61,685 nucleotides of DNA, taken from positions 1 to 61,685 of the forward strand of contig CAZYTZ010000002.1 in NCBI GenBank assembly GCA_964650545.1. Direction: 5' to 3'. The notes beneath the pieces are model-generated. The model was not told where the DNA came from. It saw only the letters and a program-made list of their open reading frames with translations, and ran no database searches. Below are positions 2,423-55,909 of this stretch, piece by piece. Source of the DNA: Candidatus Micrarchaeota archaeon (GTDB taxonomy: Archaea > Micrarchaeota > Micrarchaeia > Anstonellales > Anstonellaceae). The translations under genes were made by a program, and so were the position numbers. The first letter of the stretch is position 1; each line of letters starts with the position of its first letter.

Positions 2423-3604
2423 CTAGGTGCTGTTCTGCGCAGGAGCCAGCGTCACAACGTTGTCAAATGCCGGCATGCCCATGCTCATGGTTTTCGGCGT
2501 GCCAAATGCGCCGTCCCAAGAGGCGTTCTTTGCAATCTGCGCTACCCAGTCCGAATTCCCTTCCCACTCATAGGACTCGAAAGCGTATGGAAGCCCCTTG
2601 CCAAAGAGCGCATCCATGCTTGTTGCTACATGGAAATGCAAATGCGGTGCGTCCGAGTTGCCTGAGTTGCCAAGCAAGCCAAGCACGTCTCCGGTTTTCA
2701 CCTTGTCGCCGATTTTCACCCTCAGGCTGCCAGGTATCATGTGTGCGTAGAACGCATAGGTGCCATTGGCAATTTCCTGCATCACAAAATTCCCGCCTCC
2801 ATGCGTGACGGTAAATGGCGGCGAAGGGGTCCAAGGCACATTCTCAGGGATCTCGTCCTTGGTGTCCACGATTTCGCCGTCAGCAACAGCGTGTATTTCC
2901 TGCCCATAGCAGTAAAAGTCCTCGTTCGTTGCAGCATCAGTTTTGTATATCTTGCCGTTTTCGCCATATTTTATCCAGTCAATCGCATAGCGCTGCGAAA
3001 CGCCTGTGCTTCCCGCGCATGTGATTATCGCTTTTCGGTGGTGGTTGAAGTTGGACGGCGCCTCTGCAGCCAGCCAGCCGTTTCCGTAAAGCGGCGGCGA
3101 AATGACAATGGGTGCGGCGTAGTTAATCTCCGCCTTCGCCCCCTCAAGCGCTGGCTGCCCTTCAAAGTACAGTTTGTGCGAAATTGCAACAGGCCTGTCG
3201 CCATCCTTAAGCTCCACCCACATGTAAACAGCGTAATCATTCACGCCGTTTACCGGCGCGCGCAGCGACTCGTTCAGCTCCGCGCCCTCAATCGCCTTGA
3301 GCACGCGCGAGCCATCCAGCGCTTCCACCTTGTACAAGCCGTCTGCCGACCTGTTCGCAAGGTAAATCTCATAGAAAAGCACATTCTTTCCGCCAATCAC
3401 AGCATATTGCGGCGCATGAATGACGTACAAATTCCCGGTGGCCGCAGAAGCGGCGGCAGGCTCAGAGGGGGGAACAGCCTGCGCACCCACGGGCGGCGCA
3501 GGAACAGGCGGCACGCCAGGTGCCTTCGGCGACGCGCAGCCGAAAATCAGCATTCCAAAAACCAAACTGACAATCACTAATCCAAAAACGCGAGACATAC
3601 CCAA
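2423..3604 (-). CDS. M23 family metallopeptidase (lysostaphin/LytM-like), lipoprotein-type signal
   Basis: 393-aa ORF. The signal peptide has a lipobox-like IFGC. The C-terminal motif GDVLGLLGNSGNSDAPHLHFHV is the M23 HxH signature, with an upstream YAHM His. Confidence 0.8.
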   Translation of the reverse strand: MGMSRVFGLVIVSLVFGMLIFGCASPKAPGVPPVPAPPVGAQAVPPSEPAAASAATGNLYVIHAPQYAVIGGKNVLFYEIYLANRSADGLYKVEALDGSRVLKAIEGAELNESLRAPVNGVNDYAVYMWVELKDGDRPVAISHKLYFEGQPALEGAKAEINYAAPIVISPPLYGNGWLAAEAPSNFNHHRKAIITCAGSTGVSQRYAIDWIKYGENGKIYKTDAATNEDFYCYGQEIHAVADGEIVDTKDEIPENVPWTPSPPFTVTHGGGNFVMQEIANGTYAFYAHMIPGSLRVKIGDKVKTGDVLGLLGNSGNSDAPHLHFHVATSMDALFGKGLPYAFESYEWEGNSDWVAQIAKNASWDGAFGTPKTMSMGMPAFDNVVTLAPAQNST

Positions 3605-37756: not shown

Positions 37757-38092
37757 ATGATGCCTGGAATGGACCCCAAGGGAATGGCGAAGATGATGGC
37801 GCAAATGGGCATAAAGACTGATGAGATTGACGCCTCCAAGGTGGTCATCGAGCTGAAAGAAGGCGGCAGGCTGGTGGTTTTCGAGCCGCAGGTCGTGCAA
37901 ATCGACATGAAGGGGCAGAAGTCCTTCCAAATATCCGGCAAGGTGCATGAGGAGCAGGAAGCTGGCGAGGATGACATCAAGATGGTGATGGAAGCCGCAG
38001 GCTGCGGACGCGAAGAGGCGCAAAACGCGCTGCGCGAGACATCTGGAGATATCGCTGAGGCGATAATTCGCCTAAAAGGCGAAGAGGAATAG
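37757..38092 (+). CDS. nac: Nascent polypeptide-associated complex protein (NAC domain plus UBA)
   Basis: MAKMMAQMGIKTDEIDASKVVIELKEGGRLVVFEPQVVQIDMKGQKSFQISG plus the C-terminal UBA DIKMVMEAAGCGREEAQNALRETSGDIAEAIIRLK. Confidence 0.9.
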   Translation: MMPGMDPKGMAKMMAQMGIKTDEIDASKVVIELKEGGRLVVFEPQVVQIDMKGQKSFQISGKVHEEQEAGEDDIKMVMEAAGCGREEAQNALRETSGDIAEAIIRLKGEEE

Positions 38093-38101
38093 CGCCTTTT
38101 A

Positions 38102-38238
38102 GACGATGGCATCGCGGAAGCAATTATCAGGCTGAAAGGAGATGAAGGATAGCTGAGGCGACCTTCAACCGCGCAGCGGTTGGGGGGACAGGGGTCGCAG
38201 ACACCTGGATCATCAAGCTGAAAGGCGACGACGAGTAG
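38102..38238 (+). repeat. Two degenerate tandem 'echo' copies of the nac 3' end
   Basis: 38102-38152 (in frame with nac, after its TAG) encodes DDGIAEAIIRLKGDEG-TAG. 38146-38238 (a different frame) encodes RIAEA...DTWIIKLKGDDE-TAG. Copy 2 differs from the native end only at synonymous positions across IAEAIIRLKG. Confidence 0.7.
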
Positions 38239-38490
38239 CAAGGGACGAAATGCGCAGTTTCCGCCGGGAATTTATTGCGAATAGCGCAAGCGTGTCCCAA
38301 ATGAAACATTCCTTTTTTATATGCCTAGCAGCAGAGTAAACTTGATTTTGATGAATTTGGATGCTAAGCGCAATATTGGCAGTTTCTATGCGCTTAGCTC
38401 TGATTTTGCCATCCTTGGCTGATGGCTTGGCTCTTTCGGCTTGGCGGGTCGGAAAGCCTCCTGAAAAATATGCTCTAGCGCGGGCGCTTT

Positions 38491-39252
38491 TTGCCTGCGC
38501 CGTGGCTGGAAAAAATGAAAGCCAAAAACAGGTGCTATGCCATGCAAAAAACAATTCCGCGCGTCGTGCTTCGAAGCCCGCCAAGGGAAAAATGGTCTGT
38601 CCAAGTGTTCCCGAACGGGCATGGGCTGCCAAAAGTGTCAGGGATACCCATAACCATCGCCACCGACGCGCATTTGCCTATCATATCAAAAGGCAAGCCA
38701 GAGGCCGAAGGAAGGGCAGAAATGCAAATGGGGAAGGCCTGGGTTGCATATGATGTGCTCCTTCGCTATATCCGCGAGAACAGGCACCACAAGCTGGGCA
38801 AGGAACACGTTGCGGCATTGGCTGCCCTTACGGGGCTCGTGAGAAAATATGCCGTGAGAAAGTCGATTGATGCCCCCCGGCGAACCACGCTTGATGCTGC
38901 GCTGATGCAGATAAAAGGCGTTATAAATGGCCACGGAGATGCTAAGGTGGCGGTATACAGCATTGACTTGAGCGAAAAGCAGCACGATTACATGCTCAGC
39001 AAAGGGCTGCTGATAATTGCCAGGGTGCTGACATTCTACTTGAAGCCTGATGAAGGCAAGGTAAGGGCGGTGCTTACCAGGAGCACGGATGGCAGCGAAA
39101 CTCAGCTGTCGGTAAAGGGCGAGAAGGTGCTTTCGCTTCCGGATGAAATCAGCTATGCGGTTGCAGCCGGGCTTGGCATCGCGGGCGCCGAACTTGTTTC
39201 CAACGGCACATATTACCTGCTAAGAATTCCTCATGGCGAATCTTCGGCGTAA
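38491..39252 (+). CDS. Hypothetical protein (ORFan)
   Basis: 253-aa ORF. The start is uncertain (internal MQKTIP or MQMGKAW are possible). No motif recognised. Confidence 0.5.
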   Translation: MPAPWLEKMKAKNRCYAMQKTIPRVVLRSPPREKWSVQVFPNGHGLPKVSGIPITIATDAHLPIISKGKPEAEGRAEMQMGKAWVAYDVLLRYIRENRHHKLGKEHVAALAALTGLVRKYAVRKSIDAPRRTTLDAALMQIKGVINGHGDAKVAVYSIDLSEKQHDYMLSKGLLIIARVLTFYLKPDEGKVRAVLTRSTDGSETQLSVKGEKVLSLPDEISYAVAAGLGIAGAELVSNGTYYLLRIPHGESSA

Positions 39253-39420
39253 GCCCCACGCTTATATAAACTTTCACTGGAAATTCAGCCAGCTTCGCAA
39301 GAAGCGTGGGAGGTGAGGTGGAGCCCTCGGGTGTACCATCTCCCTCTATTTTCAACCCTCAATTCATTTGCTAGACGGCACCATCCGGCTTTATATCTTT
39401 CTTTGCACCCAGGGAATTCC

Positions 39421-41022
39421 ATGCCATCTCCGTCAGAAATAGCCAAATCCGCGCCTCAAACGCCAGGCGTTTACATCTTCAAGTCAGCTACAGGCACACC
39501 CATTTACATTGGCAAGGCAAAAAACATCAGAAGCCGCGTGGCATCCTATTTTGCGCGTGAAATGCTTGACAGGACAAGGCAGATGGTCGCCTCCGCGCAC
39601 TCACTGGAGTTTGTGGTGACTGACAATGAAGCTGAAGCGTTGCTTTTGGAAAGCAACCTCATCAAGCAGCACTACCCCAAATACAACATTGAGCTGAAGG
39701 ACAATGAAAAATTCACCTACATACTGATTAGTGACGAGGAATACCCTCGCATGCTGCTTGTGAGGAAAAACAGGACTGGAAAGGTGAATGCGCGCGGCAA
39801 GCTCTACGGCCCATTCCTTTCAGGCTCTGCATACGTGCTTGTTGCCTCCACGCTTCGCAAGATTTTCAAGCTAAGGACTTGCCGCCTCGGGCAGAAGCGC
39901 CCGTGCCTGCAGTATCATCTGGGCTTTTGCACAGGAGTGTGCGCTGGCTTGGTGACGCAAGAGCAGTATATGCAGCAGGTGAAGAAGCTGCAGGATGCGT
40001 TGTCTGGCGGCAAAAAGCTGGAAGCAGTTATGGAAGGAATGGAGCGCGAAATGAAGGAGGCTGCTAAGAAAAAGCAGTTTGAGCGCGCGCTGGAGCTGAG
40101 AAACTCTTTGCACTCGCTCTCCTCGCTTCTTGAAAGGCAGAAGTTTGAGCGCGAGGGAGAGGGGAATGAAGACTTTGTCGCGCTTCTTTCACATGAAGGG
40201 AAAACATACGTACAACTCTTCAAGCAGATTGGCGGCGTGATACGCGACAGGAAGAAATACGAGTTCGACACGTCGCTCTCTGATGATGCACTCGGCGAGT
40301 TCCTGCCGCGCTTTTACGAGGCAGGCGGCATTCCGCGCAGAATCTACTTGGAGAAAGAGCCCGAGTCAAAAGATGCGCTAGAGAAGTATTTGGCTGAACA
40401 GAGAGGAGGCGCTGTTTCCATTTTTGTGCCTGAGAGAGGGGACAAAAAAGGGCTGCTGGAGCTGCTGCGCAAGAACATCATGCTTGAAATATCAGGCACT
40501 GCAGACCCTGCGCTTGTGGAGCTTCAGCATGAGCTGTCGCTTTCCGCAATCCCGCGCGTGATTGAGTGCTTTGACGTTTCAAACCTATTCGGCACTTCTG
40601 TTGTCGGAAGCATGGTGCAGTTTGTCAATGCCAAGCCTTCCAAAAGCAATTACAGGCGCTTCAAAATCAGGTCAGTGGAGGGCCAGGATGACTTTGCCTC
40701 CATGCGCGAAATAGTTTTCCGCCGCTACTACAGGCTGAAGCTTGAGCAAAGCAAGCTGCCAGACCTCATTGTGATAGACGGCGGGCCAGGGCAATTGTCA
40801 GCCGCGCTTTCCGCGCTTTCAGAGCTGCAGCTTGAGGTGCCAATTGTCTCGCTTGCAAAGGAGTTTGAGGAAATATACTCGCCTGAGCGCGCGCTCCCCA
40901 TCCGCCTGCCGCATTCGTCAGCCGCGCTCAAAGTTCTGCAATACGCGCGCGACGAGGCGCACAGGTTCGGAATAAGCTATCATAGGCTGCTTAGGAAAAA
41001 GAGAATGAAAGAAAAAAATTAA
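39421..41022 (+). CDS. uvrC: Excinuclease ABC subunit C
   Basis: GIY-YIG N-terminus PGVYIFKSATGTPIYIGKAKNIRSRVASYF, a UVR domain, and the C-terminal endonuclease plus HhH region. I prefer the internal ATG at 39421. Confidence 0.95.
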   Translation: MPSPSEIAKSAPQTPGVYIFKSATGTPIYIGKAKNIRSRVASYFAREMLDRTRQMVASAHSLEFVVTDNEAEALLLESNLIKQHYPKYNIELKDNEKFTYILISDEEYPRMLLVRKNRTGKVNARGKLYGPFLSGSAYVLVASTLRKIFKLRTCRLGQKRPCLQYHLGFCTGVCAGLVTQEQYMQQVKKLQDALSGGKKLEAVMEGMEREMKEAAKKKQFERALELRNSLHSLSSLLERQKFEREGEGNEDFVALLSHEGKTYVQLFKQIGGVIRDRKKYEFDTSLSDDALGEFLPRFYEAGGIPRRIYLEKEPESKDALEKYLAEQRGGAVSIFVPERGDKKGLLELLRKNIMLEISGTADPALVELQHELSLSAIPRVIECFDVSNLFGTSVVGSMVQFVNAKPSKSNYRRFKIRSVEGQDDFASMREIVFRRYYRLKLEQSKLPDLIVIDGGPGQLSAALSALSELQLEVPIVSLAKEFEEIYSPERALPIRLPHSSAALKVLQYARDEAHRFGISYHRLLRKKRMKEKN

Positions 41023-53551: not shown

Positions 53552-54460
53552 ATGGCTATTGAAAAATGCCCCGAATGCAGCAGCGCAAGGCTTACGCGCG
53601 ACTATGAAAAGGGCGAGATTGTGTGCTCGAACTGCGGCTTGATAATTGCCGAGAACCTCGAGGACCCTCGCCCTGAGTGGCGTGCGTTTGACGCAGAGCA
53701 GCGCGAGAAGCGCGCACGCGGCGGAGCGCCCATCAAGTACATGCGCCCAAACAAGGGGCTTGTCACCGAGATTGACCAGTACAACCGCGACATCCGCGGG
53801 GCTAAAATTTCCCCCAAGAAGCAGGCGCAGCTCTACAGAATGAGGAAGTGGCACAAGAGGGCATCCATTGCCTCGTCAATGGAGAGGAACCTTGCCATTG
53901 CGCTTTCCGAGCTTGACAGGATTGCGTCCTATCTGGGCTTGCCGGACTCCATACGCGAGTCTGCAGCGCTCCTTTACAGGAAGTGCATCAAGGCTGAGCT
54001 CATCCGCGGAAGGCTGATTGAGTCGGTTGTGTCAGCGGTGATTTACGCGACCTGCAGGATGCAGGGAATACCGAGGACACTGGACGAGATTTCGCGCGTT
54101 TCAGGCATTGAGAAGAAGGAAATCGGCAGGGCATACCGCTTTGTGAGGCGCGAGCTTGACATCGACGTGCCGCTCACCGACCCAGCGCACTATGTGCCCA
54201 AGTTCACGGCAGCCCTCAAGCTGTCTGGGCATGTGCAGGAGAGGGCGATTTCACTTCTGAAGAAGGCGATTGCCAAGGGGCTTATCTCTGGGCGCGGGCC
54301 AACAGGCGTTGCCGCAGCAGCCGTCTACATCGCATCTGCAATGTACGGCGAAAGGCGCACGCAGAAGGAAGTGGCTGATGTCGCAGGCGTGACGGAAGTG
54401 ACAATCAGGAACCGCTACCGCGAGCTCAAAAAAGAACTCAATCTGAAAGTGACACTGTGA
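53552..54460 (+). CDS. tfb: Transcription initiation factor IIB (TFB)
   Basis: An N-terminal Zn-ribbon (CPECSS...CSNCG), a B-reader/linker, and two cyclin-fold repeats. Confidence 0.95.
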   Translation: MAIEKCPECSSARLTRDYEKGEIVCSNCGLIIAENLEDPRPEWRAFDAEQREKRARGGAPIKYMRPNKGLVTEIDQYNRDIRGAKISPKKQAQLYRMRKWHKRASIASSMERNLAIALSELDRIASYLGLPDSIRESAALLYRKCIKAELIRGRLIESVVSAVIYATCRMQGIPRTLDEISRVSGIEKKEIGRAYRFVRRELDIDVPLTDPAHYVPKFTAALKLSGHVQERAISLLKKAIAKGLISGRGPTGVAAAAVYIASAMYGERRTQKEVADVAGVTEVTIRNRYRELKKELNLKVTL

Positions 54461-54492
54461 GTTCTTTTTCTCGCCAACTGCTGCGGCAGTTG

Positions 54493-54531
54493 ACGATCAA
54501 GAAGGAGCTCAACCTGAAGGTAACTTTGTAA
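54493..54531 (+). repeat. 'Echo' copy of the tfb 3' end
   Basis: It encodes TIKKELNLKVTL-TAA, against the native ELKKELNLKVTL-TGA (54422-54460). Across KKELNLKVTL, 8 codons differ and all differences are synonymous. It is in a different frame from tfb. Confidence 0.7.
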
Positions 54532-54580: not shown

Positions 54581-55909
54581 TCAGAGGATGCCGTATTGCC
54601 TTGCGATTGCATCTGCCCGCTCCCCGATGTTTTTCAAAAGCTCAAGTTCATGGGGCGTGATGCCTAGGATCATCCGCTTGTAGCCAGCAAGCTCCGCACT
54701 CTCTTTTTCTGCCACCATGCCAAGGTTGCTGATGATCTTGTCTATTCTGCCAATTATCCTGGTTTTTTTGCTCTCGAAATCCTCAGCCCCGCTTTCCTGC
54801 TGTTTCGCGCCGTTCGCAATTTTCCCGCGCGGCTTGTTCTCGTTCAATTCCGCGTATGCTTCGGCAACGCGGTCATTGAACCAGTCAGATGCCATCCGGT
54901 TCCTGCCCGGAAGGCTGTCCTTGAGGTTCCTCAGCGTCTCGAATGTGATGTATTTTGCGTTTTCGGGCGCAAGGACTTCGGCAAGCGCCTTCTCCACGTC
55001 GAATTTGGCATTCCTCGCAGCCATCCTCTTTTCCAGCTTGTCAAGGTCAGAGTTTATGTTGGCAAAGTTCACGCCTTCTTGTGCATCTGATCTCATGTCC
55101 CTCAAGGCATTCTCTTCTTCAATGGTCAGCTTGCCGCAATTGAAGAGTGCCTTGCACCTGCCAAGGATGGACGTGCGCTCCATAGCCCGCCCTCCCCTTT
55201 TTGCGGCTTCCTGCTTCATTTCTGCAACATATTGCACTGCCGCTATACTAGTGAGACTTAGCGCAACAGGAATCATCTTCTTATACAATATCAGCTTGTC
55301 TTTTTCATCCCCAGTCAAGAGGTCGCTGCCCAAAAGCGCATCTATGTCTGCCAAAATCTTATCCTCAGAATTCGGCGGGCCAGCCTCTCTGCTGCCGCGC
55401 GCTGGCTCGGCTTTTGGCTCCTGGAAGAAAGAACTTGCTATCCGCTCGCCCCTCATCGCCTGCCTGACGAGCCCCTGCAGGCGCAGCCATTCCTGCGGCT
55501 GCTTCTCGACTTTCTTGCCCTTTGCCTTCGCTTCGGCGAATTCACCTGCAAGGCTGCGCAGGAAATTCGAGCCATCATAGCCGGCGTTCCGGCAGAGCTT
55601 CTTGAGCTGCACGGGGTCGCACACCATGCTTTTGACGAACTGCATTGCTTTTTCGCTGTCAAAGGACGTGCTGTTTGAGGAGGAATCAGAGAAAGCAGGC
55701 TGGAGAAGCATCCTGCGCAGAGCTGCCCGTATCTGGAAGATTTCGTCGTCTGAAAGCCGGGTATTTTGCAGCTTCCAGCTTATGTCCTTGACGTCGTCAT
55801 TCGGCGCGCCTCTGCGCGCCCTTTCCGCAAACAGCTGCTGTATGAGTGTTTTGGAATCCTTTAGCACATCCATTGTCCTGTTGTGCTTTGATTTGAAGCC
55901 CCTGCTCAT
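54581..55909 (-). CDS. Hypothetical alpha-helical protein (ORFan)
   Basis: 442-aa ORF. No motif recognised. Confidence 0.55.
   Translation of the reverse strand: MSRGFKSKHNRTMDVLKDSKTLIQQLFAERARRGAPNDDVKDISWKLQNTRLSDDEIFQIRAALRRMLLQPAFSDSSSNSTSFDSEKAMQFVKSMVCDPVQLKKLCRNAGYDGSNFLRSLAGEFAEAKAKGKKVEKQPQEWLRLQGLVRQAMRGERIASSFFQEPKAEPARGSREAGPPNSEDKILADIDALLGSDLLTGDEKDKLILYKKMIPVALSLTSIAAVQYVAEMKQEAAKRGGRAMERTSILGRCKALFNCGKLTIEEENALRDMRSDAQEGVNFANINSDLDKLEKRMAARNAKFDVEKALAEVLAPENAKYITFETLRNLKDSLPGRNRMASDWFNDRVAEAYAELNENKPRGKIANGAKQQESGAEDFESKKTRIIGRIDKIISNLGMVAEKESAELAGYKRMILGITPHELELLKNIGERADAIARQYGIL

Follow-up and report, generated by a model that had tools for sequence, protein, structure and literature searches.

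We analysed a stretch of 61,685 nucleotides (nt), referred to as the window, from a Micrarchaeota (DPANN) archaeon. Two of its genes, nac and tfb, are each followed by one or more additional copies of their own last codons, which we call echoes. The echoes are probably displaced gene ends, that is, scars of recombination with diverged relatives at 3' ends that border variable slots. Relatives compared with the window are given L-numbers, each of which denotes a locus or contig. The features of the nac locus are the following.

37757 to 38092, plus strand: nac (nascent polypeptide-associated complex), the live copy, an open reading frame (ORF) of 111 amino acids with Pfam NAC and UBA_HYPK domains
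38048 to 38092, plus strand: T1, the current nac end, DIAEAIIRLKGEEE followed by TAG, identical to L088 at 33 of 33 nt
38093 to 38106, plus strand: inverted copy of the live nac end, CGCCTTTTAGACGA, which pairs with 38068-38081 (13 of 14 positions complementary) and leaves the stop codon in the loop
38102 to 38152, plus strand: echo 2 (T2), the probable displaced older nac end, DDGIAEAIIRLKGDEG followed by TAG, in frame 0 relative to nac and aligned to L008
38146 to 38238, plus strand: echo 3 as a whole, in a frame other than that of nac, reading RIAEA, 15 unrelated amino acids, WIIKLKGDDE and TAG
38149 to 38207, plus strand: the probable old 3' flank carried with echo 2, consisting of a remnant (38149-38161) that resembles a nac end's first half, and two GC-rich hairpins
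38166 to 38182 and 38189 to 38207, plus strand: the two short GC-rich hairpins of this flank
38209 to 38238, plus strand: second half of echo 3 (T3b), the probable oldest displaced nac end, IIKLKGDDE followed by TAG, aligned to L106
38239 to 38322, plus strand: the probable ancestral nac 3' flank, collinear with the sequence right after the live nac stop in L106

The nac gene, whose protein has 186 homologues from Micrarchaeota (many of them named Micrarchaeota or Anstonellaceae NAC), closes with the peptide ...GDIAEAIIRLKGEEE before the TAG at 38092, encoded as GGA GAT ATC GCT GAG GCG ATA ATT CGC CTA AAA GGC GAA GAG GAA TAG. A sequence-only reading of this DNA had placed the nac end at 38048-38092; its end point stands and its start was off by 3 nt, the D codon beginning at 38048 and the G codon at 38045. 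Echo 2 begins nine bases past the nac stop and keeps the nac frame. In the IAEAIIRLKG segment, T1 and echo 2 use different codons at eight of ten positions, always synonymously, and these are exactly the eight pairs that the sequence-only reading had listed. Echo 3 is broken by 48 nt, while T1 and echo 2 are unbroken, so that decay grows with distance from nac (T1 intact, echo 2 intact, echo 3 interrupted). A homologous counterpart of the second half of echo 3 is present in L012, where it reads WIIRLNGEES followed by a stop.

The two additional copies of the last nac codons were confirmed as real, and the intact copies differ from the live end at synonymous positions only. The significance of this pattern was assessed in 200,000 simulations, in which the same base changes were placed at random and retention of the peptide was scored. 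None of the 200,000 placements of the nine changes between T1 and echo 2 left the peptide unchanged, and the same result (0/200,000) was obtained for the tfb pair described below (nine changed bases) and for echo 2 of the window compared with the echo of L088 (eight changed bases). When the last 20 residues of each of 211 ORFs were compared with their own 400-nt downstream regions, nac (score 52) and tfb (score 50) were the only genes that exceeded the 99th percentile of the control (38). The echoes are missed by Tandem Repeats Finder and are recovered by a direct-repeat search at 71-77% identity. We give virtually no credence to an assembly artefact, in which co-occurring strain variants would have been merged at the gene end or joined end to end there. 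In its favour, the L119 and window types of the tfb end are found together in one metagenome set. Against it, six contigs, each from a different sample and together covering three assembly sources (ENA MEGAHIT contigs, JGI assemblies and Logan contigs), agree at 100% identity over window positions 37991-38560, and five further contigs are identical in the tfb region between 60 nt upstream and 200 nt downstream of the stop. Since the same structure is thus found in six (nac) and five (tfb) independent assemblies, a misassembly is not involved, and homologous echo structures are moreover present in unrelated studies and species (L088, L089, L012 and L053).

Comparison with relatives showed that the echoes match gene ends that are in use elsewhere. 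Echo 2 together with the next 30 nt gives an unbroken alignment to the live nac end and 3' flank of L008 (score 67, shuffle maximum 24), and the second half of echo 3 together with the next 84 nt gives an unbroken alignment to the live nac end and 3' flank of L106 (score 79, shuffle maximum 28). The context of each echo is therefore the live-end context of some relative, which indicates that newer material was inserted upstream of each echo. In addition, actual nac alleles terminate in ...IAEAIIRLKGDEG (...KGDEG), the exact peptide of echo 2. The order of the stack at nac is T1 newest, echo 2 older and echo 3 oldest.

T1 itself is common to different species. All 33 nt of T1 are identical in L088, as are the first 10 nt past the stop, and the nac bodies of the two sequences are just 80% identical. 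At third-codon positions the window and L088 match at 11 of 11 sites in the tail compared with 52 of 93 in the body (P=0.0017). In L089, 30 of the 33 nt of T1 match the window and the identity of the nac body is 75%. T1 thus appears to be the most recent arrival at nac. The orthologous echo of L088 differs from echo 2 only synonymously across IAEAIIRLKGDEG and the stop codon, with 8 of 14 codons changed, the TAG/TAA pair included; since the two echoes differ synonymously only, each would have been in use, and under selection, as a gene end up to its displacement. Besides L088 and L089, nac echoes are present in L012, L010, L014 and L053. They are decayed in L087, L012 and L010, and L007, L104, L106, L109, L121 and L122 are free of echoes. 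The spacer between T1 and the echo measures 12-40 nt in all nac cases. A look-up of close NAC relatives, directed at a donor or a strain lacking T1, covered eight proteins including the window's own P0001, and all of these except P0003 and P0010 entered the DNA comparison; no echo was found for P0002, P0004, P0006, P0011 or P0021, the best match to T1 or echo 2 being 23 of 30.

The second locus, tfb, comprises the following features.

53552 to 54460, plus strand: tfb (transcription factor B), 302 amino acids, with Pfam TFIIB and Zn_Ribbon_TF domains
54428 to 54460, plus strand: the live tfb end, KKELNLKVTL followed by TGA, encoded as AAA AAA GAA CTC AAT CTG AAA GTG ACA CTG TGA
54458 to 54474, plus strand: inverted copy of the live tfb end, in which TGAGTTCTTTTT pairs with 54429-54440 and CTCGC with 54420-54424 (fold z = -4.4)
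54475 to 54492, plus strand: hairpin CAACTGC-TGCG-GCAGTTG, of the same type as a hairpin in the nac echo region
54499 to 54531, plus strand: the tfb echo, the probable displaced end, KKELNLKVTL followed by TAA, encoded as AAG AAG GAG CTC AAC CTG AAG GTA ACT TTG TAA

The sequence-only reading had mentioned a parallel case after tfb, and one copy does lie there, in frame +2 relative to tfb, with 9 of 11 codons different and all differences synonymous, including that in the stop codon. An identical TFB protein is encoded by eight contigs, one of which, the co-occurring strain L119, has no echo. In L119 the sequence of the tfb echo is live: the tfb end of this strain matches the window's echo at 31 of 33 nt, and its tfb 3' flank is collinear with the window flank downstream of the echo. 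The window (from 53399) and L119 are 100% identical across 153 nt upstream of the gene and tfb codons 1-233. Past codon 233, 26 of 70 tfb codons differ, all synonymously, and the DNA and genes further downstream are unrelated. The change from identity to divergence at codon 233 places a recombination breakpoint inside tfb, and two diverged tfb alleles for the same protein circulate in one population. The ending LNLKVTL is confined to a small clade, the other sampled homologues ending in LGLKVAL, LGLKINL or LGLKVNL. The differences between the window and L119 are denser in the last 13 codons (9 of 13) than in codons 234-281 (17 of 48), an unevenness that hints at a mosaic of two tracts.

Together, these comparisons favour the reading of the echoes as displaced gene ends, which the sequence-only reading had offered as one of its options: the nac echoes and their flanks are collinear with live ends of relatives, and the tfb echo is live in L119. 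Its argument that the copies were shaped by selection on the peptide, and that neither recent slippage nor neutral decay accounts for them, is borne out as well. According to this model, incoming foreign DNA would contain the last 10-15 codons of the same gene, a stop codon and a short 3' flank of its own. One junction would be homologous and the other illegitimate, the latter falling immediately upstream of the resident gene end. The gene would stay intact, now closing in the codons of the newcomer, and the resident end would be shifted downstream, where it would from then on be untranslated and slowly decay. Repeated rounds would stack such ends, with the newest adjoining the gene. The alleles would differ synonymously only because both were under purifying selection on the same peptide while in use. 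We infer that host homologous recombination combined with an illegitimate second junction provides the enzymology, and the direction of each transfer is likewise inferred.

A further property of both loci is an inverted copy of the gene end immediately downstream of the stop. The arms are TCGCCTAAAAGGCG / CGCCTTTTAGACGA at nac, and AAAAAGAACTCA / TGAGTTCTTTTT plus GCGAG / CTCGC at tfb, and the inverted copy matches the live end, not the echo. Among 130 ORFs the strongest post-stop inverted repeat is that of tfb and the second strongest that of nac. Across 65 distinct nac loci, the window's included, an inverted repeat of at least 8 bp is present at 5 of 7 echo-bearing loci versus 3 of 58 echo-free ones; these cases are not independent, since the window, L088 and L089 have one common unit. 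The inverted copy may have come in as the terminator hairpin of the new allele, or it may be a trace left by template switching or belong to a recombination site. A distant Micrarchaeota nac (~51% identical), at positions 2290-2400 of L053 and identical in L055, has a composite of the same kind: after the live end comes a 9-bp inverted copy (GAAGCAATC / GATTGCTTC) extending across the stop, and after this an echo reading GIAEAIVKLSE and a stop.

Hairpins of a second type are present in both echo regions. The motif CAACYGC...GCRGTTG occurs twice in the window, one copy per echo region, with 0.04 expected. It was considered as a mobile element and rejected, as the 103 loci searched contained, beyond the window copies, a single unrelated site (L078). 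An integron attC site was also rejected: the core motifs (RYYYAAC / GTTRRRY) match imperfectly, and integron cassettes do not duplicate the end of the upstream gene. By eye, the stems of the hairpins in the echo 2 flank appear changed in a compensating fashion in L012, and a hairpin similar to the CAACYGC type lies downstream of tfb in L113, within a run of about five short GC-rich hairpins. Such runs, with stems of 7-8 bp and loops of 3-5 nt, were seen by eye at L113 2107-2260, L012 1290-1400 and window 38166-38207; they sit in the tfb and nac 3' flanks of several Micrarchaeota and could be terminators or miniature mobile elements.

Both echo-bearing ends adjoin DNA that varies between relatives, with one gene of the window in each variable position.

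38542 to 39252, plus strand: gene in the variable slot between nac and uvrC, 236 amino acids, no Pfam match
54581 to 55909, minus strand: gene in the slot adjoining tfb, 442 amino acids, no Pfam domain

The gene in the nac-uvrC slot had been taken for an ORFan, which does not hold in the strict sense: a homologue with 65% identity is present in L088 and weak ones in L106 (32%) and L087 (28%); L008 and L009 gave no match. In L014, L089 and L090 the slot is missing, with uvrC starting 170-290 nt past nac; in the window's clade uvrC starts 1.05-1.35 kb past nac. The 442-amino-acid gene does not adjoin tfb in L112, L113 or L119. The proposal that the echo marks a junction between core and accessory DNA is therefore broadly upheld, the nac-uvrC slot gene being fast-changing or absent and the DNA after tfb variable between strains.

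Repeated gene ends were also found at other genes of relatives, in two cases with genes between the repeats. On the reverse strand of L009 (1470-2170), 590 nt of inserted DNA separate the uvrA end (...ARSKGSYTGEYLKKVL and stop) from its 51-nt echo, after which comes a T run; two proteins are encoded in the insert, one antitoxin-like with a VapB match that is weak and below threshold, the other a ParE-family toxin. On the reverse strand of L025 (4950-6350) the end of the methionyl-tRNA synthetase gene is followed by a single gene for a CitMHS/ArsB-family transporter (1.28 kb) and a 45-nt echo that is identical to the gene end at 43 of 45 nt. In L012 (770-880) an echo comprising 17 codons (VVGKMARLVKANLLLKE and stop) follows directly, and in frame, on the end that it copies, that of a creatininase-family gene upstream of nac; this echo has the Asn variant of the window's live allele.

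Several observations weigh against displacement by allele exchange. The stretch common to the window and L088 is only ~60 nt long, with divergent sequence right at both of its edges; ordinary homologous exchange would be expected to involve a longer tract, and the stretch rather resembles a discrete unit. Six species have nearly the same right-hand junction, just before GAT ATC GC; illegitimate joins made at random would not be expected to coincide in this way, barring later reshuffling of one old event. No donor genome with a nac end matching T1 was found beyond the three echo-bearing genomes, and which sequence, the window or L119, is the recombinant for tfb codons 234-290 is ambiguous, a decision that would take an outgroup. 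Finally, the model does not predict the post-stop inverted copy seen at both window loci and in L053, and the gene-end repeats all finish exactly at the stop codon and measure 33-51 nt, the length of archaeal integrase attachment sites. The last of these points bears on an alternative that we regard as possible but unlikely, namely that small mobile elements integrated site-specifically at the 3' ends of protein genes and that the repeats are the attL/attR duplications that resulted. Each element would supply its own copy of the gene end, and repeated integration followed by loss of the interior would leave stacked remnants. Crenarchaeal attachment sites span 29-69 bp with a median of 45, and archaeal integrated elements target the 3'-distal parts of protein genes, bring a new stop and re-use sites in tandem (PMC6563490), so that both the length and the position of the repeats fit. 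The toxin-antitoxin insert of L009 and the transporter gene of L025 would be compact cargo flanked by repeats, the ~60-nt unit and the constant junction would be expected, and, were the element circular, the inverted arms would lie on either side of the proposed crossover region in the manner of recombinase binding sites. Nevertheless, among ~25 close genomes looked at no integrase adjoins any of the repeats examined, their neighbours being genes without a Pfam match, a toxin-antitoxin pair or a transporter gene. In none of the relatives do T1 and echo 2 enclose a full element, the spacer being short throughout, and an exact-pattern scan of IMG/VR viral contigs for T1 gave no match. The longest run identical between T1 and echo 2 is ~5-6 nt (by eye), probably too short for a crossover core (~41 nt are identical between the repeats of L025 and 21 between those of L009). 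At tfb, moreover, the sequences diverge from a point inside the gene body, 180 nt upstream of the repeat, which fits allele exchange better than an attachment site. A related and still less probable possibility is that the newest ends are discrete, self-spreading mini-cassettes of ~60-80 nt that move between species and have no gene of their own. Such a cassette may consist of the last 11-15 codons in a synonymously different version, a stop, and the inverted copy as a hairpin over the stop, and may insert precisely before the resident end of conserved genes. The stretch common to the window and L088 would then be exactly the inserted unit, and it would be explained why one junction recurs in six species and why, among 130 ORFs, inverted repeats of this kind are strongest at the two genes with echoes.

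The two other explanations place the origin or the role of the echoes within the locus itself. We think it very unlikely that the echoes act in place, either as an alternative C-terminus (reached by read-through, frameshifting or splicing) or as an RNA switch in the 3' untranslated region, in which a segment complementary to the gene end would pair with the live end or with the echo. Such a role could be argued from echo 2 being in the nac frame with its own stop kept, in the window and in L088, and from the purely synonymous differences between the two. Furthermore, the 3' regions fold far better than shuffled sequence (z = -3.8 and -4.4), and CGCCUUUUAG is able to pair with the Leu-Lys-Gly codons of T1 and echo 3 and, by inspection, of echo 2. 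The strong folding is produced automatically by the repeats, and the synonymous-only pattern is accounted for, without any current function, by collinearity with live ends of relatives. Read-through of the TAG into echo 2, as considered in the sequence-only reading, finds no support in the frames: the nac echo is in frame 0 in the window, L088 and L087 and as often in frame +1 (L089, L012, L010 and L014), a stop intervenes in L053, and the tfb echo is in frame +2. Because the frame varies among relatives and TAG is an ordinary stop here, terminating 9 of the 43 long ORFs of the window, we judge the echoes to be untranslated; the many close relatives without an echo and the decayed copies also speak against a role in place. 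A bulge-helix-bulge intron, suggested by the in-frame interruption of echo 3, was rejected, as the fold consists of plain hairpins with no bulge-helix-bulge motif. Rfam at its gathering threshold detected a tRNA and nothing else in the whole window, and at E<=1 in 38000-39500 it gave two chance-level matches, including a C/D-box model over echo 2 (16 bits, threshold 40). More improbable again is local tandem duplication by slippage or template switching followed by divergence in place, although the tandem arrangement is what it would produce and the inverted copy beside a direct copy of the gene end resembles a product of fold-back template switching. Divergence in place should have introduced non-synonymous changes, and there are none among the 9, 9 and 8 changed bases of the three simulated comparisons. 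What T1 resembles is another species' T1, not the echo behind it, and each echo has a distinct flank that matches the flank of a relative. As the sole explanation, local duplication is already contradicted.

Displacement of gene ends has parallels in known systems. Diversity-generating retroelements are common in DPANN archaea and have a template repeat downstream of a variable 3' gene end, and like them the echoes are a second copy of a gene's 3' end just downstream of it. This candidate was rejected: the differences involve all four bases (T/G, G/A, C/A, CGC/AGG) instead of adenines alone, they are all synonymous whereas a retroelement changes the protein, and no reverse transcriptase is adjacent. 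A closer likeness is found in the C-terminal displacement arrays with orphan 3' ends at Rhs, contact-dependent growth inhibition (CDI) and type VI secretion system (T6SS) effector-immunity loci. There too the conserved 5' body is retained, the incoming 3' end has its own stop, the older end is kept downstream with the newest adjoining the gene, and alleles are swapped across strains and species; for the displaced 3' ends of Rhs/T6SS loci a model of illegitimate recombination facilitated by homology has been put forward (PMC5361080). Unlike those arrays, the echoes affect DPANN housekeeping genes (nac and tfb, and in relatives uvrA, methionyl-tRNA synthetase and a creatininase-family gene), the displaced piece, 10-16 codons long, encodes the same peptide, function is not diversified and an immunity gene is lacking, and the new end comes with an inverted copy of the live end. 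Archaeal attachment-site duplications (PMC6563490) share with the echoes direct repeats of ~45 nt that close at the gene end, a gene restored with a new stop, stacked remnants, a position at a core/variable boundary and small cargo (L009 and L025). They differ in that the window has no integrase or element body between its repeats, that most third-codon positions differ between the repeats, so that no identical core is visible, and that the tfb divergence tract reaches far into the gene. A literature search found no description of echoes of housekeeping-gene ends in DPANN archaea. The echoes are a new instance of 3'-end displacement or of integration-site remnants in an unusual setting, that of DPANN housekeeping genes and peptide-identical ends.

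If displaced, these short pseudo-ends are a record that diverged lineages have recombined among uncultivated DPANN archaea with reduced genomes, in which gene exchange is otherwise hard to observe directly. They would mark the exact edges of variable slots, and the order of a stack would give the sequence of past allele replacements. For annotation they call for caution: when a gene end and a copy close by differ synonymously only, this is no proof that the copy is translated. Should the inverted copy of the live end belong to the mechanism, this would suggest that DNA is joined at gene ends in a specific manner not described so far.

Two further observations were made in the course of these comparisons. 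A long tandem peptide-repeat region with RRPLHG-like units, at ~2500-3050 on both strands of L037, dominated the echo scans and is unrelated to the echoes. Upstream of uvrC, at positions 39283-39352 of the window, lies a conserved non-coding block, preceded at ~39262 by a TATA-like box, with two hairpins (by eye) that have GCAA and UUCG loops (GCTTCGCAAGAAGC, then GGGAGGTGAGGTGGAGCCCTCGGGTGTACCATCTCCC). The block has no Rfam match; it is kept in L008, L014, L015, L088, L089 and L090, with varying reading frames, and looks like a small structured RNA.

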